A DNA stretch of 64,000 nt from Candidatus Nomurabacteria bacterium (GTDB taxonomy: Bacteria; Patescibacteriota; Minisyncoccia; Phycocordibacterales; UBA918): positions 802,141-866,140 of the forward strand of contig JACKGF010000001.1 in NCBI GenBank assembly GCA_020632095.1, read 5' to 3'. The first letter of the stretch is position 1. Each line of letters begins with the position of its first letter. Shown here piece after piece: positions 260 through 61,671 of the stretch. A model generated the notes under the pieces. That model ran no database searches. It was not told the DNA's origin and worked only from the letters and a program-made list of their open reading frames with translations. Both the position numbers and the translations under genes were made by a program.

Positions 260-2053
260 TTAATTAGGAAACCCTAGTTTTACAATTTGTGAGAATTTAC
301 TTTCACTGGTGGTGATGATGACAGTGTTGTGGTTTACTATACCGTAGACAATTTGAGATCCATTTTCAGTTTTCAAGATCCTAACGTCAAAACCAGTAAT
401 TGAAACATCTTTGAATTTTGATTTGTTATCGTTCTCAACAGATAGAAGCTCTGACAAATCTTTGTTCATGGTTGCTTCCCACTTTAGCAATCCCCCTCGA
501 ACTGTGTATTCGTCAGTAAAGCCAAGAATAAGAGCTGGTTCTGATTGGTTTACGCTAACAAAATGAGCAGTGTTGATTGATTGGGTTAAGCTAGGTTCAG
601 TCTTGAACTGTAGAGACTTAAAGATGCTGGCGGAGTCTAATTCGATTCCAGATGATGGCACTACTGATATTTCTACCAATTCACCAGGAATGGTTTTCGC
701 CAATTCAGAAACTTTATCTACTAGTGAAGGATTAACATTGTTTGCAACACCTAGGTTTATTTGTTTGGCGCCCTGAAGAAGTTGTTTTTGGACTATTTCT
801 ACTTTTGGTGCGTCAGTTCCAGGCATGAAGTATTGGAATATGAATTTAACTGAGAATACAAAGGCAACTAAACCTATAACAATCATCAGGACAACAACAG
901 CTTGAGTATTTGTTTCTTGTTGTCGTAGTCTCTGGAGGAAGTTGGCAGGAGAAAGATTCTTAGTTTGGGGTTCTGGAATAGAAACTTCCAGTTCTGGTAC
1001 AGGTTCCTCATAAAAAACTTCTTCTTGCTGCTCAGGAATAAATTCCTCAGGTGTTTCAACATTGATTTCTGGCATTGCTGCAATCGGCGTATTTTCAATC
1101 TTTTGTACAGACTCCTCTTTCACTTCTGGTACTACTGCAGTTGTTACTTCTGGAACTGGTGCAGGAATTTCATCTTCCTTCACTTCTGGAGTGACTGAAG
1201 GAATAGGTGGTGTTGGGAGAGGTGTGGGTGGTTTAACATCATCAATCCTTGCTTGTTTCTTAAACTCAACCTTAATATTCGCTGGTTCGTCAGGCGCTTC
1301 AAGTAGGTTGTATCCAGTTTCAGTAAAAGGTGACCAGCTAGTTTCGGCTTCTTTTTCCTTTTCTTGTAGGCGACGACGTCGAATTTGTTCTTTTATAGTA
1401 TCATTATCGGCAGTGAATATAGTGCCGGTTTTTGAAGTAGCTTTTTGGATAACTCCTTTGCGACGATTGGTTTCTGGTACTGTATAGGTTGGAGTCTTTT
1501 TCTTTTTTCTGCGTTGATTTAACTCCTTGAACCAGGACCTAATAGAATCGATGATTGAAGGCAAAAGTTTGAAACTACTTTCTTTGGTGTCTGTAATAAT
1601 TGTGGCGCCACCACCACCTGTAAATTTCCTAATGGGTTTAATTGTTTCTATATGTCTAGTCGGAACTTTTTTTGGTTCTGAACTTTTTATTTCTGAAGTC
1701 TTGCTAGCGTGTCTTGAAACAATGTTAATTTTACGGTCGTTATTGTTGGGAGATGACGGGTGATGTTTTTTTAGCTCATGAAAAGCCGGTATAGGGTTGT
1801 GTACTGAAGGTTTTTTCTCTGGAGAGAGGTTAGGAACAGTAATCTTAGAAACTGGAACGGGATTTTTTTGCTTAGGAATCATTTCAGAAACAGTCTCTTC
1901 CAGATCCTTTTTATTGCTTAGTTCGATTGGTCTGTTTGGAATGGAATTATTTCTAACTTCCTCCACGTGAGGTTTTTTGTTGGCACGTACAGCATCTAGG
2001 TCCTTCGCAAAAGTGCGAATGTTTGAAAGGTGTTTTTGCTTAGAATCACTCAT
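260..2053 (-). CDS. hypothetical Pro/Lys-rich single-pass membrane protein (597 aa)
   Basis: Long ORF with a low-complexity Pro-rich region, one hydrophobic helix (VVVLMIVIGLVAFVFSVKFIF) and a C-terminal globular region. I recognise no family. Confidence 0.5.
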   Translation of the reverse strand: MSDSKQKHLSNIRTFAKDLDAVRANKKPHVEEVRNNSIPNRPIELSNKKDLEETVSEMIPKQKNPVPVSKITVPNLSPEKKPSVHNPIPAFHELKKHHPSSPNNNDRKINIVSRHASKTSEIKSSEPKKVPTRHIETIKPIRKFTGGGGATIITDTKESSFKLLPSIIDSIRSWFKELNQRRKKKKTPTYTVPETNRRKGVIQKATSKTGTIFTADNDTIKEQIRRRRLQEKEKEAETSWSPFTETGYNLLEAPDEPANIKVEFKKQARIDDVKPPTPLPTPPIPSVTPEVKEDEIPAPVPEVTTAVVPEVKEESVQKIENTPIAAMPEINVETPEEFIPEQQEEVFYEEPVPELEVSIPEPQTKNLSPANFLQRLRQQETNTQAVVVLMIVIGLVAFVFSVKFIFQYFMPGTDAPKVEIVQKQLLQGAKQINLGVANNVNPSLVDKVSELAKTIPGELVEISVVPSSGIELDSASIFKSLQFKTEPSLTQSINTAHFVSVNQSEPALILGFTDEYTVRGGLLKWEATMNKDLSELLSVENDNKSKFKDVSITGFDVRILKTENGSQIVYGIVNHNTVIITTSESKFSQIVKLGFPN

Positions 2054-4428: not shown

Positions 4429-5064
4429 TTACGCTAAGTAATCTGTATCTGTGCCAACAACGGTATTGGGTTGAGATTTAGTACTTGCCTTGGTCTTTGT
4501 GCCCTGCTTTCCGGAGGCTCTTCCGGTTGTTTTTCTGCCGACTGATTTCTTGGTTGGGCGGTAGCCAATAAGAAAATGTTTAGGGTCATCGTCCATGTCT
4601 ATAAAATCATCAACCACAGACTTTAGTCCAGATGAAGCTGAGCGGCCAAAAGTGATAACTTCCATTTGGCAGCCCTGACTTTTAATGTATTCAACCAGAG
4701 GAATAAAATCACCGTCTCCCGTCGCTAAAATAATAGCATCAACTTTTTTAGATAATTTAATAGCGTCAACTGCCATTCCTACATCCCAGTCGGCTTTCTT
4801 CGCACCACCGTAAAATATTTGTAGGTCTTTAGTTTTGATTTCGATGCCAACTTTTTCTAATGCATCAAAAAAGGCAGATTCTTCTCCTCCTTCTGTATTT
4901 ACTACGTATGAAACAGCTCTAATGAGTTTGCGGTCTTGGACAGCTGCATCAACTACTGCACCGAAGTCAACTTTCGATTTGTATAAATTTTTGGCACTGT
5001 GATACAAGTTTTGTGTATCAATGATCATTGCCACCCTTTGTTCAGGATGTCTAATTACTCCCAT
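4429..5064 (-). CDS. NYN-domain (LabA-like, PIN-like) protein
   Basis: MIIDTQNLYHS...AIILATGDGDFIPLVEYIKSQGCQMEVITFG matches NYN/COG1432. It has a Lys/Thr-rich C-terminal tail. Confidence 0.6.
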   Translation of the reverse strand: MGVIRHPEQRVAMIIDTQNLYHSAKNLYKSKVDFGAVVDAAVQDRKLIRAVSYVVNTEGGEESAFFDALEKVGIEIKTKDLQIFYGGAKKADWDVGMAVDAIKLSKKVDAIILATGDGDFIPLVEYIKSQGCQMEVITFGRSASSGLKSVVDDFIDMDDDPKHFLIGYRPTKKSVGRKTTGRASGKQGTKTKASTKSQPNTVVGTDTDYLA

Positions 5065-5621: not shown

Positions 5622-6533
5622 ATGGAACTAGAGGAACTGAAACGTCAATTTTTAGAGTACCTCGAAATCGAGCGAGGGAGGAGTGTTAAGACAGTTGAAA
5701 ATTATGATCGTTACCTCGGACGGTTTTTTAACTTTGCGAAAGTCAAAAAACCGTCCGACTTTACTGAGGAACAAATTCGCGAGTTTCGTTTGTATCTCAA
5801 TCGCCAACCCGGCACCAAAGTTGGCGGCCGAGTGGAGTCAATGAAACGACGTACCCAAAATTATTATTTGATCGCCTTGCGCGCATTTCTTAAATTTTTG
5901 CGTAAGCGCGGAGTTGAGGCATTGTCACCTGAACGAATCGAGTTGGCTAAAGTACCGGAGCGTTCACTCGATTTGATTTCAGCTGCTGAGCTGAAAAGAC
6001 TGATGGCTGCTCCAGATAAAAAAACTCTCGAAGGTAAAAGGGATAGCGCAATTTTAGAATTACTTTTTTCTACTGGTCTGCGTATTTCTGAATTGTGTGG
6101 ATTATCAATTGATGATGTAGATTTAAGTCGAGACGAATTTTCTGTCCGTGGTAAGGGAGAAAAAGTTCGAGTGGTTTTTCTCTCTGACACCGCTAGGAGC
6201 GCGCTCGAGGATTATACTAAAAGTCGTAAAGATTTAGACGACGCTATGTTTGTACGGTTAGGAAGAAAAGTTAATGATGGTGGTGATTTACGTTTGTCTC
6301 CACGAGCGGTCCAAAGATTATTAAAACGTTATGCTGCTGAAGCTGGAATCACTCGCAAGGTAACACCACATGTCATTCGTCACAGCTTTGCCACCGACTT
6401 GCTTAGTAACGGCGCTGACCTACGTTCGGTTCAAGCTTTGCTCGGTCATGCCAATATAGGCACCACTCAAGTTTATACTCACGTGACAGATAAACATTTA
6501 AGAGATATTCATAAAAAATTTCATGGCAAATAA
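5622..6533 (+). CDS. tyrosine recombinase, XerC/XerD family
   Basis: It has an N-terminal SAM-like domain and a C-terminal catalytic HVIRHSFATDLL...LGHANIGTTQVYTHV with the R-H-R-Y residues. Confidence 0.85.
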   Translation: MELEELKRQFLEYLEIERGRSVKTVENYDRYLGRFFNFAKVKKPSDFTEEQIREFRLYLNRQPGTKVGGRVESMKRRTQNYYLIALRAFLKFLRKRGVEALSPERIELAKVPERSLDLISAAELKRLMAAPDKKTLEGKRDSAILELLFSTGLRISELCGLSIDDVDLSRDEFSVRGKGEKVRVVFLSDTARSALEDYTKSRKDLDDAMFVRLGRKVNDGGDLRLSPRAVQRLLKRYAAEAGITRKVTPHVIRHSFATDLLSNGADLRSVQALLGHANIGTTQVYTHVTDKHLRDIHKKFHGK

Positions 6534-23252: not shown

Positions 23253-23912
23253 ATGGTACGGAATCAAGTGAATTATGAACAAGCTATCAATCTTCGGAAA
23301 CGTGGTTTTACTTTAGCTGAGATAGCTAAAGTGTGCGATATATCTAAGTCCACCGCTTCATTATGGTTGAAAAATAAGGCTTTTTCGGAGCTGGTAACTA
23401 AACAAAATATAAAACGCGCTGGCCAAGAAAACGCCAAAAGATTGAGTCTAATCAGCAAAGCGCGCGGTGGTGAACGCAAGCAAAGATACTTAGACGCACA
23501 AACATCAGCTAAGACAGAGTTTGCCCACTACAAGGCCAATCCTGCCTTTGTAGCGGGTGTAATGGCCTATGTGATGTCGGGAGACATGAGTGATGAGCAT
23601 ACTATCAGACTCAGTCATACTTCCCTGTCAGCCCACCGTATGTTTATCAGCTTTGCTACTAAGTTCCTGGGAGTAGAAAAAAACCGGATTCATTTATGGC
23701 TACACCTCTATGAAGGTGCATCAGAAGAAAGAATGATGAAAAAATGGTCTAAAATAACCACTATTCCCTTCTCTCAGTTCTATAAAAATCAATTTGTTAA
23801 TAAAACCAGCCGCAAACCATTGCACTCTGGCGTCGGAAATACTATAATCGGCAGCACCTATCATAAACAAAAGCTAAAAGCCTGGGTGCATTTAGCGGAA
23901 AAAGAATGGTAG
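23253..23912 (+). CDS. HTH-domain protein, unknown function
   Basis: It has an N-terminal helix-turn-helix (RGFTLAEIAKVCDISKSTASLWLK). Confidence 0.45.
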   Translation: MVRNQVNYEQAINLRKRGFTLAEIAKVCDISKSTASLWLKNKAFSELVTKQNIKRAGQENAKRLSLISKARGGERKQRYLDAQTSAKTEFAHYKANPAFVAGVMAYVMSGDMSDEHTIRLSHTSLSAHRMFISFATKFLGVEKNRIHLWLHLYEGASEERMMKKWSKITTIPFSQFYKNQFVNKTSRKPLHSGVGNTIIGSTYHKQKLKAWVHLAEKEW

Positions 23913-23925
23913 AATAGACATATAA

Positions 23926-23996
23926 GCGGCCATGGTTAAGTGGTATAACGGGTCCTTGCCAAGGATCAGTCGGGGTTTCGATTACCCCTGGCCGCA
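23926..23996 (+). tRNA. tRNA-Gly (anticodon GCC)
   Basis: The acceptor stem is GCGGCCA/TGGCCGC. The anticodon loop is TTGCCAA. The T-arm is GGGGT-TTCGATT-ACCCC. A hairpin at 24003-24022 follows. Confidence 0.85.
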
Positions 23997-24022
23997 CAAA
24001 TATAAAGACCCGCAATGGTCTT

Positions 24023-24186
24023 TAGGCGTCTGTGGCCAGGGAGCAAGCAAACTGCTTTGCTTGCGGGTAATCGAAACCGCCGGAGTGATGTATTTTGCTC
24101 TTTTCCTAGAGCAAAATACGAGCGAGGTGTGACCCGTGGCACTTATGAGCAAAGCGAATTTGTGACCGTCAGGTTTCGATAATTTT
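24023..24186 (+). other. tRNA-linked structured element A (homologous to element B)
   Basis: It shares blocks with 25961-26129: gcaaactgctttgc inside a 9-bp covarying stem, aatcgaa.cgccggag.gatgt, cgagcgaggtgtgacccgtggcactt, gagcaaagcgaa and gtgaccgtcagg. It ends with ggtttcgat, which echoes the tRNA-Gly T-arm. Confidence 0.4.
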
Positions 24187-24412
24187 TAGGGTGATGTCCG
24201 TACATAATAGACCTAGTAAAGATGAGCGTGTGCGAATGTAAGTAGACAATTAGTTTCTATAGAGTGCATAACTGGGGATAAGGAGTGGATAGGTGGATAA
24301 AGGACAAAAAGGGTTATAAAAGGCACTTGTCCTTTATATATTCTTGGTATAATAAACAAAATCATGTTTCATTTCACATGAAACGGGAAATATTTGTAAA
24401 TACTAAGTTTCA

Positions 24413-24827
24413 TATGAAACAAACTGATAAACAAGGCAGAAAAAACGAAATTGGAGCCTACGGGGAAGAAATTGCTATAAATTACCTTAAAAAGCTAGGT
24501 TTTACTATTTTAGATACAAATTATCTTAAAAAATGGGGTGAAATTGACATTGTGGCACGTGAAACAGACAAAATTCACTTTATTGAGGTAAAAACAGTTT
24601 CATATGAAACAAAGATTGACTTAAAAAATGCTATTTCACGTGGCACCTGGCGCCCAGAAGAAAACGTACACGTTTCTAAGATACAAAGACTGAACCGAGC
24701 GATTGAAAGTTGGATTATGGAAAATAACTATAATGATGAGTGGGAAATCGACGTTATAGCGGTGCGAATGGTTCCACGTGAAAAATACGCTACCGTTAAA
24801 TACATAGAAAGTGTCGTTTTTGGTTGA
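24413..24827 (+). CDS. YraN-family (UPF0102) PD-(D/E)xK endonuclease-like protein
   Basis: GAYGEEIAINYLKKLGFTILDTNY...GEIDIVARETDKIHFIEVKTV matches YraN. The likely start is the ATG at 24413 inside a palindrome. The listed ORF (24285) begins earlier. Confidence 0.55.
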
Positions 24828-24845
24828 TTGTGATAAGATTTTTGT

Positions 24846-25076
24846 ATGAGTGATTTAAAACTTGGTAAGTACAAGCATTACAAAGGTAATTTCTATGAAG
24901 TTATTGGTTGTGCCAGACATAGTGAGACCTTAGAAGAGTTAGTGGTTTATAAAGCGCTGTACATATCAAATGATTTCGGGAAAGACGCATTGTGGGTCAG
25001 ACCAAAAGCTATGTTTATGGAAAGCATTGAATTGAAGGGCGTAATGGTTCCTAGATTTGAGTACATCCGTCAATAA
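24846..25076 (+). CDS. DUF1653-domain protein
   Basis: KYKHYKGNFYEVIG...VVYKALY is typical of DUF1653. Confidence 0.55.
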   Translation: MSDLKLGKYKHYKGNFYEVIGCARHSETLEELVVYKALYISNDFGKDALWVRPKAMFMESIELKGVMVPRFEYIRQ

Positions 25077-25091
25077 TTTCACATGAAACAT

Positions 25092-25121
25092 GCTAAAACG
25101 TTTCACGTGAAACGTTTTAGC
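25092..25121. promoter_or_regulatory. 30-bp perfect palindrome gctaaaacgtttcacgtgaaacgttttagc (operator and/or terminator)
   Basis: Its core TTTCACGTGAAA belongs to a palindrome family that recurs at about 24366-24384, 24407-24420, 24554-24565, 24597-24610, 24635-24647, 24774-24786 and 25077-25089. Confidence 0.4.
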
Positions 25122-25152
25122 AAATTTATGTATGTTAGTTTATAATATTTAG

Positions 25153-25537
25153 ATGAAATTTTATATTGCTGCACGAACGTCGCAAATTCCTAGAGTTAGG
25201 GAATATATCACAATGCTTGAAGAAAAAGGTCATGTTTGTACGCATGATTGGACTCAGCACGAGAAAGCAGAGTTGCAAAGACCCTACGAGGAACATTTAG
25301 AACTAGCTTCTGAGTTTGCAGTGAAGGACGTGGGGGGGGGTAGTTGAGGCTGAAGTTTTCATAATACTGGGTGATCAGTCTGGTTCAGGTATGTATGTTG
25401 AAATGGGAGCTGCTTTAGCTAGCAATACGAAAATATATGCAATTGGAGATTTTAATGATGCTACCGTTTTCCATTTCCATCCTTTGGTGACAAGAGTAAA
25501 CACGTTCGAAGAGGTGTTACTAGATTTGGGTACTTAA
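25153..25537 (+). pseudogene. nucleoside 2-deoxyribosyltransferase-like protein interrupted at a G9 homopolymer
   Basis: The N-terminal part reads MKFYIAARTS... and the C-terminal part reads EAEVFIILGDQSGSGMYVEMGAALASNTKIYAI. Together they match the NDT/DNPH1 family. They are in different frames on either side of G9 at 25332-25340. Removing one G fuses them into about 128 aa. Confidence 0.5.
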
Positions 25538-25683
25538 AACTCGCTTTTTTTCTGACTAGATGTTATATTTTGCAGACTTTGATCGTACTTTGGCGGTCAA
25601 GGAAGCGGGGTAGATAGCTGGGTGTATGCGAAGCATACAACCTCTCTTCACTCGGTCATAGTGTGCTGCAAGCAAAGCTTGCT

Positions 25684-25745
25684 CCAGTAAATTTAAATAC
25701 TTAAAATTAAAGTTCACTTTCATTTTAAGTATTTAAATTTACTGG
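25684..25745. repeat. long perfect hairpin (24-bp arms, about 14-nt loop)
   Basis: ccagtaaatttaaatacttaaaat ... attttaagtatttaaatttactgg. Confidence 0.6.
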
Positions 25746-25846
25746 ATTCAGCACCCTGCGACTCTCGCTCATCGGGGTGTAAGCAGAAGCTTCCACCCCC
25801 ACGTTCGGAAAGTAAATATAAGCAAGCTTTCATTTATTCCCTCACT

Positions 25847-25917
25847 CGGGGTGTAGCATAGTGGTAGTGTACTCGGTTTGGGACCGAGCGGTCCGGGTTC
25901 GATTCCCGGCTCCCCGA
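25847..25917 (+). tRNA. tRNA-Pro (anticodon TGG)
   Basis: The anticodon stem is CTCGG/CCGAG with loop TTTGGGA. The T-arm is CCGGG-TTCGATT-CCCGG. The acceptor stem is CGGGGTG/CTCCCCG with one T-T mismatch. A 19-bp-arm palindrome (25918-25960) follows. Confidence 0.8.
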
Positions 25918-25960
25918 CAAAATTATAAAATCCTAGCCTTTGGCTAGGATTTTATAATTT

Positions 25961-26129
25961 GAGAGGGGAGAAGAGGCAAACTGCTTTGCCTCTGTCCGGA
26001 ATCGAACGCCGGAGCGATGTGAGCCTGCGAACGAGTGAGGTGTGTCACGCGGCACTTGCTAGTTTGTGAGCAAAGCGAAACAAACTAGCTTAGTGACCGT
26101 CAGGACGATTCCCGGCTCCCCGACAAAAT
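25961..26129 (+). other. tRNA-linked structured element B, ending in an exact 24-bp copy of the tRNA-Pro 3' end
   Basis: It shares blocks with element A. The stem agaggcaaa-ctgc-tttgcctct covaries with gcaagcaaa-ctgc-tttgcttgc in A. Positions 26106-26129 (cgattcccggctccccgacaaaat) equal 25900-25923. Confidence 0.45.
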
Positions 26130-26165
26130 AAAAATCACCCTCGGTTTGTTCCGAGGGTGATTTTT
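26129..26165 (+). terminator. intrinsic terminator
   Basis: aaaaatcaccctcggtttgttccgagggtgatttttg. Confidence 0.65.
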
Positions 26166-26179
26166 GTTATACTTTTTGA

Positions 26180-43364: not shown

Positions 43365-43435
43365 TGCGGGTGAGAGGAATCGAACCCCCGACTACTGCTT
43401 GGAAGGCAGTCGTTTTACCACTAAACTACACCCGC
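43365..43435 (-). tRNA. tRNA-Gly (anticodon TCC)
   Basis: Reverse-complement acceptor stem GCGGGTG/CACCCGC. The anticodon stem is ACTGC/GCAGT with loop CTTCCAA. The T-loop is TTCGATT. Confidence 0.8.
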
Positions 43436-43471
43436 GAAATGAGTACTTGGGGCGTTTGGGTGCGTAGCTTT

Positions 43472-43531
43472 CGAGAAGTAATTATTAATGAAACAGATGC
43501 TTGTATATGTTTCATTAATAATTACTTCTCG
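43472..43531. repeat. long perfect hairpin (24-bp arms, about 12-nt loop)
   Basis: cgagaagtaattattaatgaaaca ... tgtttcattaataattacttctcg. Confidence 0.6.
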
Positions 43532-43876
43532 ATACAGGCTTTGCCTGTATACCCAAACATTTCAGGCGAACGAGAGGGTGTATCCTTAGATACACCCGCG
43601 TGTGTCTGTATGCTCCACTCTGAACCAAGGGTTGGCTCAAAGTTAAACGATTCTAGCATATTAGGCTGATAATTCAATCTGTGGAGGAAAAACAAAAGTC
43701 TCCGGCTGAGGAGACTTTTGTTTTTTGTGATGGGAAATAGCGAACAACGCCCTTCTTTATCCACATAGCGTTACCTCCGCTACTTAAATATTATAGCACA
43801 CAGATTAGAGAAGGTGGTAGGTATAACAAATGCCGTGTGAGACTTTGGTCCCACACGGCATTTGTTTGAGAGTAAA

Positions 43877-50196: not shown

Positions 50197-51204
50197 TTCC
50201 CCCAGACACCTTTGAAGTAGGACAGCTATAAAGTAAATTAGCTGTCTATGAAAACATACAGACACATACAATTTGAGGAGCGTTTCGTAATTGAAAAGTT
50301 ATTGAACGCAGGGAGTTTGATCAGAGAAATAGCCATCTTCCTCAAACGTAGTCCCAACACCATCAGTCAGGAACTAAAGAAGAATAGGGTTAATGGAGTC
50401 TATGACGCCAAGCAAGCCCAACTAAAAGTGAACCAGCGTCGTTGGCGCGCTAAACGTCAGTGTCTCAAGGTGGCAATGGATAGTTTCCTAGTAAGCTTCG
50501 TAGAAGACAAACTAGAGCAGAAGTGGACCCCTAAACAAATCAGTGGACATCTCAAACGAGAGCTCGGTGTTACCTGTTCCGCCAAAGCTATATACAAGTT
50601 CATAGAAAGTCGTGGTCTGGAATATCGACTATTCTGGCGTTGGAACAAAAAGAAAAGTGGTCCGAAACGGACCACACATAAACCAGCTGATGATGGCCGT
50701 AAATATATAGATATTCGTCCTCTTGGTAGCCATGAGCTAGGTCACTATGAACTAGACTTCATTGTCTCTAAGTACAGTCCATACGTACTTCTAGTGGCTA
50801 CTGACCGTTTAACTAAATACAGCTTGGTACGTCAGTTACCCAATAGAAAACGCCACACAATCAGTGCAGCGTTCTCTAAAATGTTTAGCAATATTATAGT
50901 CAAGAGTATCACCACCGACAACGACATTGCATTCCGTCACTGGACGGAACTAGAACAAATCATACAGGCTCCAATCTATTTCTGCCACCCTTATCATTCT
51001 TGGGAGAAGGGACTGGTAGAGAATACTAATCGTTGGATTAGATGCTTTGTTCCAAAGCGGAGAGACATTGCGTCTGTTACTCAAGAAGAATTGAATGAGA
51101 TTCATACCTTCTTGAATGACCGACCGAAAGAGTGTATTGATTTTAGGATTTCGAGTGAGTATTATTATGAGCAATCTGTCCTACTTGAGGGGTAGCTGGA
51201 GGTT
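50197..51204 (+). mobile_element. IS30-family insertion sequence, copy 1 (about 1.0 kb)
   Basis: It is identical to 60664..61671 apart from 2-3 substitutions. It has imperfect terminal inverted repeats (..aagtaggacag..) and encodes a DDE transposase. Confidence 0.8.
50248..51195 (+). CDS. IS30-family DDE transposase
   Basis: 315 aa with an N-terminal HTH and a C-terminal integrase-core region (HPYHSWEKGLVEN). Confidence 0.85.
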   Translation: MKTYRHIQFEERFVIEKLLNAGSLIREIAIFLKRSPNTISQELKKNRVNGVYDAKQAQLKVNQRRWRAKRQCLKVAMDSFLVSFVEDKLEQKWTPKQISGHLKRELGVTCSAKAIYKFIESRGLEYRLFWRWNKKKSGPKRTTHKPADDGRKYIDIRPLGSHELGHYELDFIVSKYSPYVLLVATDRLTKYSLVRQLPNRKRHTISAAFSKMFSNIIVKSITTDNDIAFRHWTELEQIIQAPIYFCHPYHSWEKGLVENTNRWIRCFVPKRRDIASVTQEELNEIHTFLNDRPKECIDFRISSEYYYEQSVLLEG

Positions 51205-60194: not shown

Positions 60195-60663
60195 AATACC
60201 TTACCTCTTGGATTTTAAAAACCAATCCAAAATTTAGAATGAAAATGGCCGCCTTCCCTGAAGGGTTGGCGGCCGGTTGCGTCCGTGCTGGCGGTTTGTT
60301 GACCGCTAGCTAGGGACTGGTTGAAAGGACATTCGCCTCCGAAGCCTGAGCGATGTAGTCGCGGGGCAAACTTCGGGGCGGGCGATCAGAAGTCCATCAG
60401 CTACCGCAGGTGCCGTCGATCGGCTGGCGGAAGGCGATGTTTCTGGTGCTACTTCGCGAGCCCAGGTCGAATCAGATGTTGATATCGACCGGCGTGGCCG
60501 CGTCAGCCGCTGGCGTGCTTGCCGGCGCCGGACAGGAAGGAAAGGTAATAACAATTGTTGTCTCCGGTGGTCACCGGCGGTGTTCGCTTGCTATTCATGC
60601 GTCGCTCCTTGTTTGTACTTCGTTTCAAAAACGTCGCTTAACGATGGTCAGCTTCCTCTCCAT

Positions 60664-61671
60664 TCCCCCCAGACACCTTTGAAGTAGGACAGCTATAAAG
60701 TAAATTAGCTGTCTATGAAAACATACAGACACATACAATTTGAGGAGCGTTTCGTAATTGAAAAGTTATTGAACGCAGGGAGTTTGATCAGAGAAATAGC
60801 CATCTTCCTCAAACGTAGTCCCAACACCATCAGTCAGGAACTAAAGAAGAATAGGGTTAATGGAGTCTATGACGCCAAGCAAGCCCAACTAAAAGTAAGT
60901 CAACGTCGTTGGCGGGCTAAACGTCAGTGTCTCAAGGTGGCAATGGATAGTTTCCTAGTGAGCTTCGTAGAAGACAAACTAGAGCAGAAGTGGACCCCTA
61001 AACAAATCAGTGGACATCTCAAACGAGAGCTCGGTGTTACCTGTTCCGCCAAAGCTATATACAAGTTCATAGAAAGTCGTGGTCTGGAATATCGACTATT
61101 CTGGCGTTGGAACAAAAAGAAAAGTGGTCCGAAACGGACCACACATAAACCAGCTGATGATGGCCGTAAATATATAGATATTCGTCCTCTTGGTAGCCAT
61201 GAGCTAGGTCACTATGAACTAGACTTCATTGTCTCTAAGTACAGTCCATACGTACTTCTAGTGGCTACTGACCGTTTAACTAAATACAGCTTGGTACGTC
61301 AGTTACCCAATAGAAAACGCCACACAATCAGTGCAGCGTTCTCTAAAATGTTTAGCAATATTATAGTCAAGAGTATCACCACCGACAACGACATTGCATT
61401 CCGTCACTGGACGGAACTAGAACAAATCATACAGGCTCCAATCTATTTCTGCCACCCTTATCATTCTTGGGAGAAGGGACTGGTAGAGAATACTAATCGT
61501 TGGATTAGATGCTTTGTTCCAAAGCGGAGAGACATTGCGTCTGTTACTCAAGAAGAATTGAATGAGATTCATGCCTTCTTGAATGACCGACCGAAAGAGT
61601 GTATTGATTTTAGGATTTCGAGTGAGTATTATTATGAGCAATCTGTCCTACTTGAGGGGTAGCTGGAGGTT
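60664..61671 (+). mobile_element. IS30-family insertion sequence, copy 2
   Basis: It is identical to copy 1 except for a few substitutions. Confidence 0.8.
60715..61662 (+). CDS. IS30-family DDE transposase (copy 2)
   Basis: It differs from the copy-1 protein at 2 residues (N/S and T/A). Confidence 0.85.
   Translation: MKTYRHIQFEERFVIEKLLNAGSLIREIAIFLKRSPNTISQELKKNRVNGVYDAKQAQLKVSQRRWRAKRQCLKVAMDSFLVSFVEDKLEQKWTPKQISGHLKRELGVTCSAKAIYKFIESRGLEYRLFWRWNKKKSGPKRTTHKPADDGRKYIDIRPLGSHELGHYELDFIVSKYSPYVLLVATDRLTKYSLVRQLPNRKRHTISAAFSKMFSNIIVKSITTDNDIAFRHWTELEQIIQAPIYFCHPYHSWEKGLVENTNRWIRCFVPKRRDIASVTQEELNEIHAFLNDRPKECIDFRISSEYYYEQSVLLEG

Follow-up and report, generated by a model that had tools for sequence, protein, structure and literature searches.

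Elements A (24034-24180) and B (25965-26129), which lie behind the tRNA-Gly and tRNA-Pro genes of the window (the whole 64-kb stretch of DNA analysed here), are probably members of a previously undescribed family of mobile elements of Patescibacteria that carry no open reading frame (ORF). The two are homologous, and their alignment shows every sequence block listed in the original prediction, which had regarded them as a structured family rather than a chance resemblance. The longest common block, GAGGTGTGNCNCGNGGCACTT, occurs at only two places in the 64 kb, in A and in B, against 0.02 expected. No third copy was found in the window, a covariance-model (CM) match at 60479-60589 (11.6 bits, E 0.12) being taken as noise. 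The features of the two loci are as follows.

23926-23997, plus strand: complete tRNA-Gly(GCC), host of element A (ARAGORN; Rfam tRNA, 62.7 bits)
23998-24033, plus strand: trailer and terminator-like hairpin of the tRNA-Gly locus, stem AAAGACC/GGTCTTT (repeat search; fold)
24034-24041, plus strand: arm G1 of A, GGCCAGGG, reverse complement of tRNA-Gly 23986-23993
24043-24064, plus strand: P2 hairpin of A, 9 bp, loop CUGC, stem GCAAGCAAA/TTTGCTTGC, 100% paired
24065-24078, plus strand: arm G2 of A, GGGTAATCGAAACC, 14/14 reverse complement of 23974-23987
24077-24175, plus strand: conserved core of A (CM R1; pair table)
24172-24180, plus strand: shortened direct copy of the tRNA-Gly T-arm, GGTTTCGAT, equal to 23974-23982
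25600-25846, plus strand: 5'-side counterpart units upstream of tRNA-Pro (tRNA 5'-start copies)
25847-25918, plus strand: complete tRNA-Pro(TGG), host of element B (ARAGORN; Rfam)
25919-25964, plus strand: trailer and terminator-like hairpin of the tRNA-Pro locus (repeat search; fold)
25965-25970, plus strand: arm G1 of B, GGGGAG, reverse complement of the tRNA-Pro acceptor 3' strand CTCCCC at 25910-25915
25972-25993, plus strand: P2 hairpin of B, 9 bp, loop CUGC, stem AGAGGCAAA/TTTGCCTCT, 100% paired
25996-26007, plus strand: arm G2 of B, CCGGAATCGAAC, antisense to the tRNA-Pro T loop and T-stem 3' strand
26006-26106, plus strand: conserved core of B (CM R1; pair table; RNAalifold)
26106-26129, plus strand: direct copy of the tRNA-Pro 3' end, an exact 24-nt repeat of 25900-25923
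26127-26168, no strand assigned: bidirectional intrinsic terminator after B (terminator prediction)

Public genomes and metagenomes were scanned with sequence patterns, and the loci fetched in this way were then searched with a covariance model; this yielded about 30 further copies, all on Patescibacteria/Saccharibacteria-like contigs. The metagenome scan contributed 24 loci. The genome scan contributed 3 real loci among 75 matches, a blastn filter having set aside the other 72 as chance matches in unrelated GC-rich genomes; by its strict 20-base pattern, 3 of 185,579 species representatives are positive. More diverged subfamilies are recovered by the covariance model within the same loci. The units are about 150-210 bp long and contain no gene, as had been predicted for A and B, and all lie behind and co-oriented with a tRNA or tmRNA gene, either directly or deeper in an array. 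Tandem arrays are frequent, and the host genes comprise tRNAs for Gly, Pro, Phe, Tyr, Ala, Met, Arg, Ser and Thr as well as tmRNA. Pattern scans of viral contigs gave 0 real matches (the 4 matches of the third pattern are chance hits in coding sequence), BLAST against phages and plasmids gave no match, and a literature search found no description of such elements.

The defining feature of the units is their 5' part, an exact reverse complement of their own tRNA's 3' end that is divided into two arms, G1 being antisense to the acceptor 3' strand and G2 to the T-stem 3' strand and T loop. Between the arms there is usually the P2 hairpin of 9 bp; a conserved core, about 100 nt long, comes next, and the 3' end of the unit is a direct copy of the tRNA 3' end (7-60 nt) that begins within the T loop, with identity to the tRNA starting at C56, or at T54 in A and two other loci (L091 and L014). 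In A, G1 is antisense to the acceptor 3' strand and the end of the T-stem (23986-23993) and G2 is antisense to the T loop and T-stem 3' strand of tRNA-Gly; in B, 25998-26007 of G2 is a 10/10 reverse complement of 25897-25906. Overall, the arms cover 16.8 nt of the 24-nt tail of their own tRNA, compared with 5.2 nt for other tRNAs. The P2 hairpin of A is identical at 20 of 22 positions to that of the tmRNA-linked element in L014, whereas the arms around it are wholly different and match tRNA-Gly in A and tmRNA in L014. Between A and B the P2 stems differ in sequence and are both 100% paired, as the original prediction had observed.

At both window loci, the tRNA 3' end, the terminator hairpin and the antisense arms are predicted to fold into a single long hairpin, of which the trailer hairpin is the tip (inverted repeats 23986-24010/24017-24041 at tRNA-Gly and 25910-25938/25942-25970 at tRNA-Pro). 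Hairpins of this kind, 45-50 bp long, are predicted in 17 units and together contain 810 Watson-Crick pairs, 28 G.U and 3 A.C. The original prediction had missed both this long hairpin and the loss of the acceptor part from the 3' copy of A. The exact 24-nt repeat that it did report behind B is the attL/attR-type signature of insertion at a tRNA 3' end; the copy runs from C56 in the T loop to the discriminator plus 4 nt, with identity extending at 93% over 29 nt, and judging from sequence it is a displaced (attR-like) 3' fragment of tRNA-Pro. The terminator at 26127-26168 is probably the original terminator of tRNA-Pro. In the predicted fold, the 3' copy of B pairs with G1 and G2 and closes the element (P3 in RNAalifold), the stem GGGGAG/CUCCCC being followed by the discriminator as in tRNA-Pro itself. 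This closing stem, which resembles an acceptor/T-stem minihelix, is incomplete in A, where the weaker T-arm echo noted earlier, GGTTTCGAT, is all of the copy that is present; the orthologous locus L091 retains the full copy, GGTTTCGATTACCCCTGGCCG. G1 of A has no partner in the 3' copy of A, and its pairing is therefore possible only with the real tRNA end. In addition, the trailer part of the palindrome in A has decayed (76% paired) whereas G1 and G2 are intact (22/22 paired), a pattern that we count in favour of selection on the arms. A regenerated tRNA end with a displaced 3' direct repeat is also found at Arg, Phe, Thr, Gly and tmRNA loci.

The core is predicted to fold on the tRNA-sense strand as a three-way junction. 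CM R1 matches A at 24067-24185 (73.7 bits, E 1e-19) and B at 25996-26116 (122.2 bits). In B, Pa comprises 26006-26010/26039-26043, Pe 26014-26036, Pb 26044-26047/26103-26106, Pc 26050-26056/26092-26099 with a bulged A, and Pd 26058-26067/26080-26089, which encloses the loop GAGCAAAGCGAA (26068-26079). In A, Pa (24077-24081/24126-24130) is followed by a tandem G.A motif, Pe and its hairpin occupy 24085-24123, Pb is 24131-24134/24172-24175, and Pc is 24137-24143/24161-24168 with an outermost U.G pair (24137-24168); the Pd stem is missing and the invariant loop lies at 24147-24158. The collection of homologs and the covariation check that had been proposed at the outset came out positive, with many homologs and compensatory change in 22 of 28 pairs. 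In the alignment 94.5% of cells are paired, which none of 500 shuffles equals and which compares with 28-41% in slid controls, and RNAalifold independently finds P3 and the core helices Pa, Pe, Pb, Pc and Pd. The first nucleotides of the T-loop copy are paired in Pb, with covariation (GUCC/GGAC vs GACC/GGUU). The invariant unpaired parts are the loop GAGCAAAGCGAA, the bulged A and the joining strand GUCA, and one subfamily carries a CUUG tetraloop. The minus strand folds with equal energy, but the core on the tRNA-sense strand has 24 G.U against 4 A.C, which favours the plus strand as the functional one.

Several comparisons bear on mobility. Within one genome, the units at a tRNA-Arg and a tRNA-Ser locus have cores that are 99% identical and arms that are unrelated. 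The core of A is 76% identical to that of a tmRNA-linked unit (L052) compared with 62% to that of the orthologous tRNA-Gly locus, and for B the elements at tRNA-Phe and tRNA-Ala reach 87% identity. One locus (L106) contains a tandem duplicate, and in two closely related strains (L098 and L102) flanks that are 98.5-100% identical enclose a unit in one and none in the other. The outcomes that the original prediction had named as telling against it did not appear, given that homologs are many, strains are polymorphic and no full-length version bearing an integrase was found. A clean empty site was seen for neither window locus, because homologs of the flanking gene are not syntenic (for the PEP-utilizer gene downstream of tRNA-Pro, homologs of 58-61%), and the contigs retrieved through the DUF1653 gene were not long enough to help. 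No excised or circular form was observed.

In many respects the units resemble the islands and prophages that tyrosine integrases insert into tRNA and tmRNA genes, and whose normal scar is a direct repeat of a tRNA 3' end (Islander, PMC4383910). Shared features are a split within the T loop, a replacement 3' end that leaves the tRNA intact, a displaced 3' direct repeat, tandem arrays at one tRNA and tmRNA targets. Unlike such islands, the units measure 150-210 bp, contain neither an integrase nor any other ORF, have a covarying folded core and carry an antisense copy of their target, for which a double-stranded attP has no need. A plain attP/attB integrase model neither requires nor explains the antisense arms. 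CIMEs and MITE/REPIN-type elements are likewise small, multi-copy, hairpin-prone, devoid of ORFs and presumably mobilised in trans. However, CIMEs are kb-sized deletion products, MITEs have fixed terminal inverted repeats and short target duplications where the units have tRNA-specific ends and a copy of 7-60 nt, REPINs are mobilised by RAYT without target copying, and none of the three has arms matched to individual targets.

Mobilisation in trans by an integrase, as originally suggested, is not established, because the search for an enzyme identified none. Beside the units, no gene for a recombinase, a reverse transcriptase or a transposase was found, and BLASTP of the flanking ORFs of about 30 units returned no Xer-like tyrosine recombinase. 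The window has only one generic recombinase of the Xer type and, besides it, two IS30-like genes, at distances of about 18-36 kb from A and B; the first, its sole tyrosine recombinase, lies 18 kb away and scores as Xer, below integron-integrase cut-offs. The only flanking ORF family that recurs beside units is an HTH/LAGLIDADG-like protein of about 220 aa (23253-23912 in the window), which shows synteny at the tRNA-Gly locus and is represented by distant paralogs in two further loci. As a shared enzyme it was rejected, having no specific family match and not being adjacent in most loci.

A unit is made up, in this order, of the replacement tRNA 3' end from the T loop with its terminator hairpin, G1, P2, G2, the core and the displaced tRNA 3' end, and it meets its host inside the T loop (between positions 53 and 56). 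The tRNA remains intact because the unit supplies its own copy of the 3' end, and repeated insertion events would give rise to arrays. G1 and G2 are predicted to clamp a tRNA 3' end, which could be that of the tRNA gene itself or the 3' copy within the unit, the two being identical in sequence, and the Pa/Pe and Pb/Pc/Pd helices are predicted to join this clamp exactly at the junction point. In the reading that we consider most likely, the arms would act as guide-like target-recognition segments in a conserved scaffold, and the folded strand, whether RNA or non-template DNA, would serve a recombinase encoded in trans as substrate or cofactor for strand exchange within the T loop. More tentatively, we suggest as a possibility a new kind of mobile element, in which a small structured RNA or folded strand encoded by the element finds its tRNA-gene target by base pairing through the two guides that flank the P2 hairpin, with the exchange in the T loop being self-catalysed or carried out by a recruited host or trans-encoded enzyme. 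If this is true, the guides could be reprogrammed to any tRNA or tmRNA, which would explain near-identical cores with different arms at different tRNAs. Insertion into a non-cognate tRNA would first yield a chimeric tRNA, a point against the mobile-element reading.

A scaffold with target-complementary segments that vary by target, ending at the element boundary with flank beyond, is also seen in the bridge (seek) RNA of IS110/IS1111, the EBS of group II introns and the omega RNA of TnpB/IscB. Unlike these RNAs, the units have no adjacent recombinase, reverse transcriptase or nuclease gene and no sequence or Rfam similarity to them; about 20 contiguous target nucleotides are split by one hairpin, and a sense copy of the target is present too. 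Relative to IS110/IS1111, there is no adjacent ORF (DEDD/serine recombinase), and a three-way junction with one bipartite antisense arm takes the place of two loops. The scanned window ORFs contain no IS200/IS605 TnpA/TnpB domain, and the Rfam search gave no omega/HEARO match.

A rather unlikely but substantial alternative is that the units are structured RNAs that serve the host, or have been domesticated by it, and are transcribed by read-through from the tRNA promoter. G1, G2 and the unit's own 3' copy would then mimic the acceptor/T stem, with P2 in place of the remaining tRNA; the unit may be excised and finished by RNase P, RNase Z and the CCA-adding enzyme, and the core may, for example, bind a protein. 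The tRNA-Pro-like closing stem of B, the RNA-like character of the core (G.U pairs, tandem G.A, the CUUG tetraloop) and the invariable orientation of the units with the tRNA all agree with such a role. So does the occupation of the tRNA-Gly locus in two lineages that share only 46% identity in the flanking protein, and the units at every tRNA examined in one Saccharibacteria genome could equally reflect a host function. Yet a terminator-like hairpin precedes every unit and no sigma-70-type promoter was detected for the units; for the same reason, the co-transcription with the tRNA that had been proposed earlier is not established. Further points against a host RNA are that A retains G1 although the acceptor part of its 3' copy is gone, that core kinship tracks neither locus nor species, that strains differ in presence and absence, and that so few species representatives are positive by the strict pattern. 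Known tRNA-like RNAs (the tRNA-like domain of tmRNA, viral TLS, mascRNA) share paired ends that form an acceptor-like stem on a T-stem-like helix and a 3' end identical to that of a tRNA, and the order of 3' part, spacer and 5' strand recalls permuted tRNA and tmRNA genes; unlike these, the units have a 100-nt junction domain for a T loop, no anticodon arm and a different tRNA mimicked by each copy. A host role and mobility are not exclusive. The original prediction had offered a mobile element or a structured RNA as alternatives, and the evidence fits one object that is both; its insertion signature and its structure stand, while RNA as the folding molecule is not established and its model omitted the tRNA-specific antisense arms within a conserved scaffold.

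It is distinctly unlikely that the units are folded single-stranded DNA recombination sites like integron attC or CTX-phage attP(+), a variant of the guide proposal with both molecule and enzyme specified. Within one strand, the tRNA 3' end in sense orientation would pair with the antisense arms to give a duplex copy of the T-arm/acceptor DNA, which an Xer-like or integron-like tyrosine recombinase would recombine with the T loop in the double-stranded tRNA gene, and arrays would grow beside the tRNA as cassettes do beside attI. As in attC and attP(+), the hairpin is long, imperfect and defined by structure, and arrays stand immediately next to a fixed platform. The hairpin that the tRNA end forms with the arms is near-perfect with few G.U pairs, the T loop is a classical crossover site of tDNA integrases, an Xer-type tyrosine recombinase is present in the window, and the presence of a terminator ahead of the core speaks against strong transcription. 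In contrast to those systems, no IntI-type integrase or other recombinase is linked to the units, the hairpin copies the end of the target tRNA, and there is an additional three-way-junction domain with many G.U (G.T) pairs and non-canonical motifs; the comparison with attC concerned the integrase. Like the guide proposal, this account does not explain how arms are re-matched to new tRNAs.

We regard as very improbable a self-processing RNA, intron-like or ribozyme, in which a catalytic three-way junction cleaves or ligates at GGA|C56, the arms serve as an internal guide holding the tRNA 3' segment, and the T loop is entered at the RNA level or the unit is spliced from read-through transcripts. 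The junction point does fall exactly at the branch of the predicted three-way junction, Pb covaries with the T-loop copy, the unpaired loop, bulged A and GUCA strand are invariant, and group I introns are frequent in tRNAs of Patescibacteria (PMC13011429). However, A and B have no match in Rfam 15 up to E 10, to ribozymes and introns included, and units in 10 other loci have none up to E 0.05. The group I intron model RF00028 did not match the units and did detect a genuine intron in one locus (L096, 481-778). The upstream tRNA is complete, which makes splicing unnecessary, and such a ribozyme would be without precedent. By-eye comparison gave a poor fit to hammerhead, hairpin-ribozyme and K-turn readings, and likewise to a primer-binding site; the arms, notably, do not cover the discriminator and CCA. 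Ordinary scars, either deletion remnants of larger integrase islands or passive palindrome extension at terminators, are hardly tenable: direct repeats are normal after tDNA integration and template switching can generate perfect palindromes, but the covariation and the arm layout already contradict this reading, given a core that has 22 covarying pairs and is conserved in several lineages over at least 10 target genes, no long version, a P2 kept between two re-specified arms that palindrome copying would erase, and arms intact in A beside a decayed trailer palindrome.

If the units are mobile and targeted by their arms, they would be smaller than any targeted mobile element known and would provide a natural nucleic-acid insertion guide, reprogrammable between targets, in bacteria with genomes of about 1 Mb and very few classical mobile elements. 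On a conservative reading, the units still form a new family of structured elements in which covariation is strong. The units explain the odd 'tRNA fragment' repeats near tRNA genes in Patescibacteria MAGs. Similar units also occur at the 5' ends of tRNA genes. The tRNA-Pro 5'-like fragments that had been noticed upstream of tRNA-Pro are real, comprising TCGGGGTGTA at 25772-25781 (equal to 25846-25855, the tRNA-Pro 5' start) and GGGTGTATGC at 25620-25629, each followed by an inverted copy, and an AT-rich hairpin lies at 25683-25746. Together with the occupation of nearly all examined tRNA genes in some genomes, these 5'-end units suggest an unnoticed layer of tRNA-gene biology in the phylum. 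The units can also break assemblies, and three (L002, L040 and L089) end or become chimeric at them.

The original prediction placed two homologous elements, A and B, immediately downstream of tRNA-Gly(GCC) and tRNA-Pro(TGG), and our analysis confirms this observation, since A and B align across every sequence block proposed for them and the accompanying repeats and stems hold at nucleotide level. Both host genes are among the four tRNAs found in the window by ARAGORN and Rfam. The longest common block, GAGGTGTGNCNCGNGGCACTT, occurs only at the A and B sites in the 64 kb (expected 0.02), and a covariance-model scan of the window returns two copies only, B at 122 bits and A at 74 bits. The 24-nt repeat (25900-25923 = 26106-26129), the 9-nt tRNA-Gly echo in A (GGTTTCGAT) and the paired stems of A and B, here termed the P2 hairpins, are all exact. 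In addition, each element begins with a reverse complement of its own tRNA's 3′ end, a feature that the original prediction missed. This antisense sequence is divided into two arms, G1 and G2, which are kept apart by the 9-bp P2 hairpin.

Host tRNAs and antisense arms of A and B (window positions)
23926-23997: tRNA-Gly(GCC), host of A
24034-24041: G1 of A, GGCCAGGG, pairs with the tRNA-Gly acceptor 3′ strand
24065-24078: G2 of A, GGGTAATCGAAACC, 14/14 complement of the T loop and T-stem 3′ strand at 23974-23987
25847-25918: tRNA-Pro(TGG), host of B
25965-25970: G1 of B, GGGGAG, same antisense role for tRNA-Pro
25996-26007: G2 of B, CCGGAATCGAAC, same antisense role for tRNA-Pro

The tRNA 3′ end, trailer, terminator-like hairpin and arms together make up one long hairpin from which P2 branches to the side, and over 17 units (single copies of the element family) this hairpin contains 810 Watson-Crick pairs, 28 G·U pairs and 3 A·C mismatches. 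The arms are specific for their own tRNA: 6-mers of the antisense arms cover 16.8 of its last 24 nt, compared to 5.2 nt for other tRNAs, and high off-diagonal coverage is seen only where two elements share a host tRNA type. The P2 of A is identical at 20 of 22 positions to that of a tmRNA-linked element (locus L014), while the G1 and G2 segments flanking the two hairpins are wholly different and match tRNA-Gly in A and the tmRNA in L014. Based on this near-identity of P2 beside arms re-specified to each host, the arms seem to behave like guide segments set in a scaffold. Passive palindrome extension by template switching was considered and rejected, as it would erase P2, yet P2 is kept between A and L014. 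In A, the trailer palindrome has decayed to 76% pairing and the element's 3′ copy has lost its acceptor part, so G1 can pair only with the real tRNA end. Despite this decay and truncation, 22/22 arm nucleotides still pair with the tRNA, and the arms thus appear to be under selection.

Related units were identified in public genomes and metagenomes. Scanning 185,579 species genomes with a 20-base pattern gave 75 matches, three of which were confirmed by blastn (one Saccharibacteria MAG, one Patescibacteria MAG and a 4-kb contig from a Gammaproteobacteria bin), and a 24-base pattern scan of JGI metagenomes gave 24 loci, all 24 genuine. The covariance model recovers further, more diverged subfamilies in the same loci. 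At all confirmed loci, the element lies directly behind and co-oriented with a tRNA or tmRNA gene, or farther along an array that follows such a gene, and the hosts include Phe, Tyr, Gly, Ala, Met, Arg, Ser and Thr tRNAs in addition to tmRNA. The window has a match in an ENA metagenome contig, and a protein encoded there is identical to NCBI H6784_04040 from a ~1-Mb MAG labelled 'Candidatus Nomurabacteria bacterium', with homologs mostly in Saccharimonadales. Rfam 15 contains no family matching A, B or the related units, and phage and plasmid collections contain no similar DNA.

Each unit follows a common order of parts, and the core folds into a set of helices (Pa to Pe) joined to P3. This core structure was derived by hand from 20 distinct cores and tested afterwards.

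Parts of a unit and helices of its fold
Part 1: tRNA 3′ end starting in the T loop, trailer and terminator-like hairpin
Part 2: G1, antisense to the trailer and acceptor 3′ strand
Part 3: P2, optional; always 9 bp plus a tetraloop, loop mostly CUGC, stem sequence free
Part 4: G2, antisense to the T loop and the 3′ strand of the T stem; last bases ...TCGAAC
Part 5: conserved core of ~100 nt, ending GTGACCGTCAGG(A)
Part 6: direct tRNA 3′-end copy of 7 to ~60 nt, starting at C56 (T54 in A, L091 and L014)
P3: G2 paired with the 3′ copy
Pa: 5-bp helix
Pe: helix with a variable hairpin extension, reached via a bulged G and tandem G·A pairs
Pb: 4 bp; 3′ strand GG(A/U)(C/U), located where core and tRNA copy join
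Pc: 7 bp; bulged A invariant
Pd: variable stem with GAGCAAAGCGAA as its invariant loop; A lacks this stem

P3, Pa and Pb come together in an almost linker-free three-way junction, at whose branch point the tRNA copy is joined. Across 16 sequences, 95.5% of cells are paired, compared to ~30% in slid controls. In an alignment of 25 sequences that includes diverged subfamilies and, being fitted to the model, leans towards the structure, 94.5% of cells are paired, two-sided changes occur in 22/28 pairs (0/500 shuffles reach the observed values) and RNAalifold recovers P3, Pa, Pe, Pb, Pc and Pd. The additional homologs and covariation for which the original prediction had called were therefore both obtained. 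Pb also covaries with the first nucleotides of the T-loop copy, being mostly GUCC/GGAC, and GACC/GGUU in A, L091 and L014. The excess of G·U pairs over A·C mismatches (24 vs 4) indicates that the folding strand is the tRNA-sense strand, as RNA or single-stranded DNA.

Several observations speak for mobility. Judged by sequence identity, core relatedness does not follow locus. The core of A shares 76% identity with a tmRNA-linked element and only 62% with the one present at L091, the orthologous tRNA-Gly locus, which has the same flanking genes as A (protein identity 46%), and B matches elements at tRNA-Phe and tRNA-Ala of other organisms with 87% identity. Contigs L040/L098 and L102 overlap and come from closely related strains of one organism (shared region 98.5-100% identical), in which the cores at the tRNA-Arg and tRNA-Ser loci are 99% identical with unrelated arms. 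The original prediction proposed comparing the tRNA-Gly and tRNA-Pro loci of related strains for an empty site; a presence/absence difference is seen at this tRNA-Ser locus, where L102 carries a unit of the main family and L098 none. Instead, the neighbouring unit of L098 contains two additional tiny inserts. These inserts (4700-4870, ~70-80 nt, inside a second-family unit) are absent in L102, and one opens with the preceding 4 nt in inverted form (CTGG|CCAG). At least 10 different tRNA/tmRNA genes act as hosts, and in the same Saccharibacteria genome 6/6 tRNAs examined (Val, Leu, two Arg and two Ser) are followed by main- or sister-family units. Units also form arrays: at a tRNA-Thr gene (L106) a unit is duplicated exactly in tandem, and some arrays mix the main family with the shorter second family.

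We conclude that A and B belong to a new ORF-less mobile-element family targeting the tRNA T loop, and that the tRNA-sense strand is predicted to form a three-way junction clamping the tRNA 3′ end via two target-specific arms. Most likely, a trans-encoded enzyme would exchange strands within the T loop, and the folded element, as RNA or as non-template-strand DNA, may serve as substrate or guide of that exchange. Our analysis identified no candidate for the trans-acting enzyme and saw no excised form; each unit is preceded by a terminator-like hairpin, and no promoter was found. One difficulty for a mobile element is the re-matching of arms to a new tRNA, as the route would pass through a chimeric tRNA. 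Four rival readings stand out: a tRNA-like RNA that serves the host and is matured by tRNA enzymes, a folded single-stranded DNA site similar to attC/CTX, a self-processing ribozyme, and inert scars. Classical tDNA integration leaves a direct repeat starting in the T loop and a regenerated tRNA (PMC4383910), both of which the units share. However, the plain integrase model is not enough, as the units lack an ORF, no recombinase gene lies near any of the ~30 copies whose neighbourhoods were checked, and a double-stranded attP site has no use for the antisense target copy that the units carry. Inert scars are contradicted by the covariation. While the insertion logic of the units is already known, a gene-less 150-210-bp element with a conserved fold and target-matched arms is found neither in Rfam nor in the full-text literature searched, the nearest paper dealing with group I introns in the anticodon loop of Patescibacteria tRNAs (PMC13011429). 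That the family represents a new, guide-programmed type of mobile element is a tentative proposal, which we consider less likely than not.

A mirror-image phenomenon is seen at tRNA 5′ ends, at window positions 25600-25846 (+) and 43436-43600 (-), with the architecture again X - loop - X′ - body - X. The tRNA-Pro 5′-like fragment of the original prediction is borne out, as TCGGGGTGTA at 25772-25781 equals the leader plus first 9 nt of tRNA-Pro (25846-25855). This repeat is followed by its inverted copy (25774-25784/25789-25799), and an older tRNA-Pro 5′ copy (25620-25642) and an AT-rich hairpin (25683-25746) lie nearby. Upstream of tRNA-Gly(TCC), CGCGGGTGTA at 43591-43600 is identical to 43427-43436, and hairpins lie at 43576-43597 and 43471-43532. 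L040, L085 and L103 carry similar units ahead of their tRNAs.

The second 3′ family (~100 nt) occurs in arrays with the first (L040 4680-4790, L084, L090 and L102), and a pattern search found none in the window. It consists of an antisense arm resembling G2, a long hairpin with GAG(C/U)(A/G)AAGCGAA as its cap, the motif GGTATACTG-hairpin-(C)GAAA and then a tRNA 3′-end copy. Contigs stop or turn chimeric at units (L089 at both ends, L040 at the 3′ end, L002 at the 5′ end), and in L089 tRNA-Arg arms are joined to the 3′ copy of a tRNA-Ser locus; the unit family is repetitive enough to break short-read assemblies.

Other genes of the window
5622-6533: Xer-type tyrosine recombinase (XerA/XerD-like), then an overlapping 326-aa ORF without family
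23253-23912: 219-aa HTH protein with a degenerate LAGLIDADG-like middle, immediately upstream of tRNA-Gly
50248-51195 and 60715-61662: two IS30-like transposase ORFs of equal length (HTH_38 + rve)

Neither the Xer-type recombinase nor either IS30-like ORF adjoins A or B. The HTH protein has no NCBIfam match, is syntenic in L091/L092/L094 (46% identity) and has distant paralogs in L096 and L103. Between A and B, the palindrome TTTCAYRTGAAA has five copies in 740 bp (24372-25112) surrounding the UPF0102 and DUF1653 genes and none elsewhere in the 64 kb (expected 0.07), and looks like an operator cluster. An ORF at 25153-25537 is split by an eight-G run (25331-25340), a homopolymer frameshift due to assembly error or phase variation; the gene is intact (127 aa) in L108 and L109, which come from two other samples. 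The tRNA-Pro leader CCTCACTCG (25840-25848) is exactly complementary to the B core block CGAGTGAGG (26032-26040), probably by chance, as that block is already used inside the core fold; a 'TTCCTCACTT' leader recurs ahead of tRNAs in related genomes. Lastly, L096 carries a group I intron at 481-778 (-) (Rfam, 43.8 bits, just below the gathering score), and behind the intron-bearing tRNA stand two units from a diverged subfamily.
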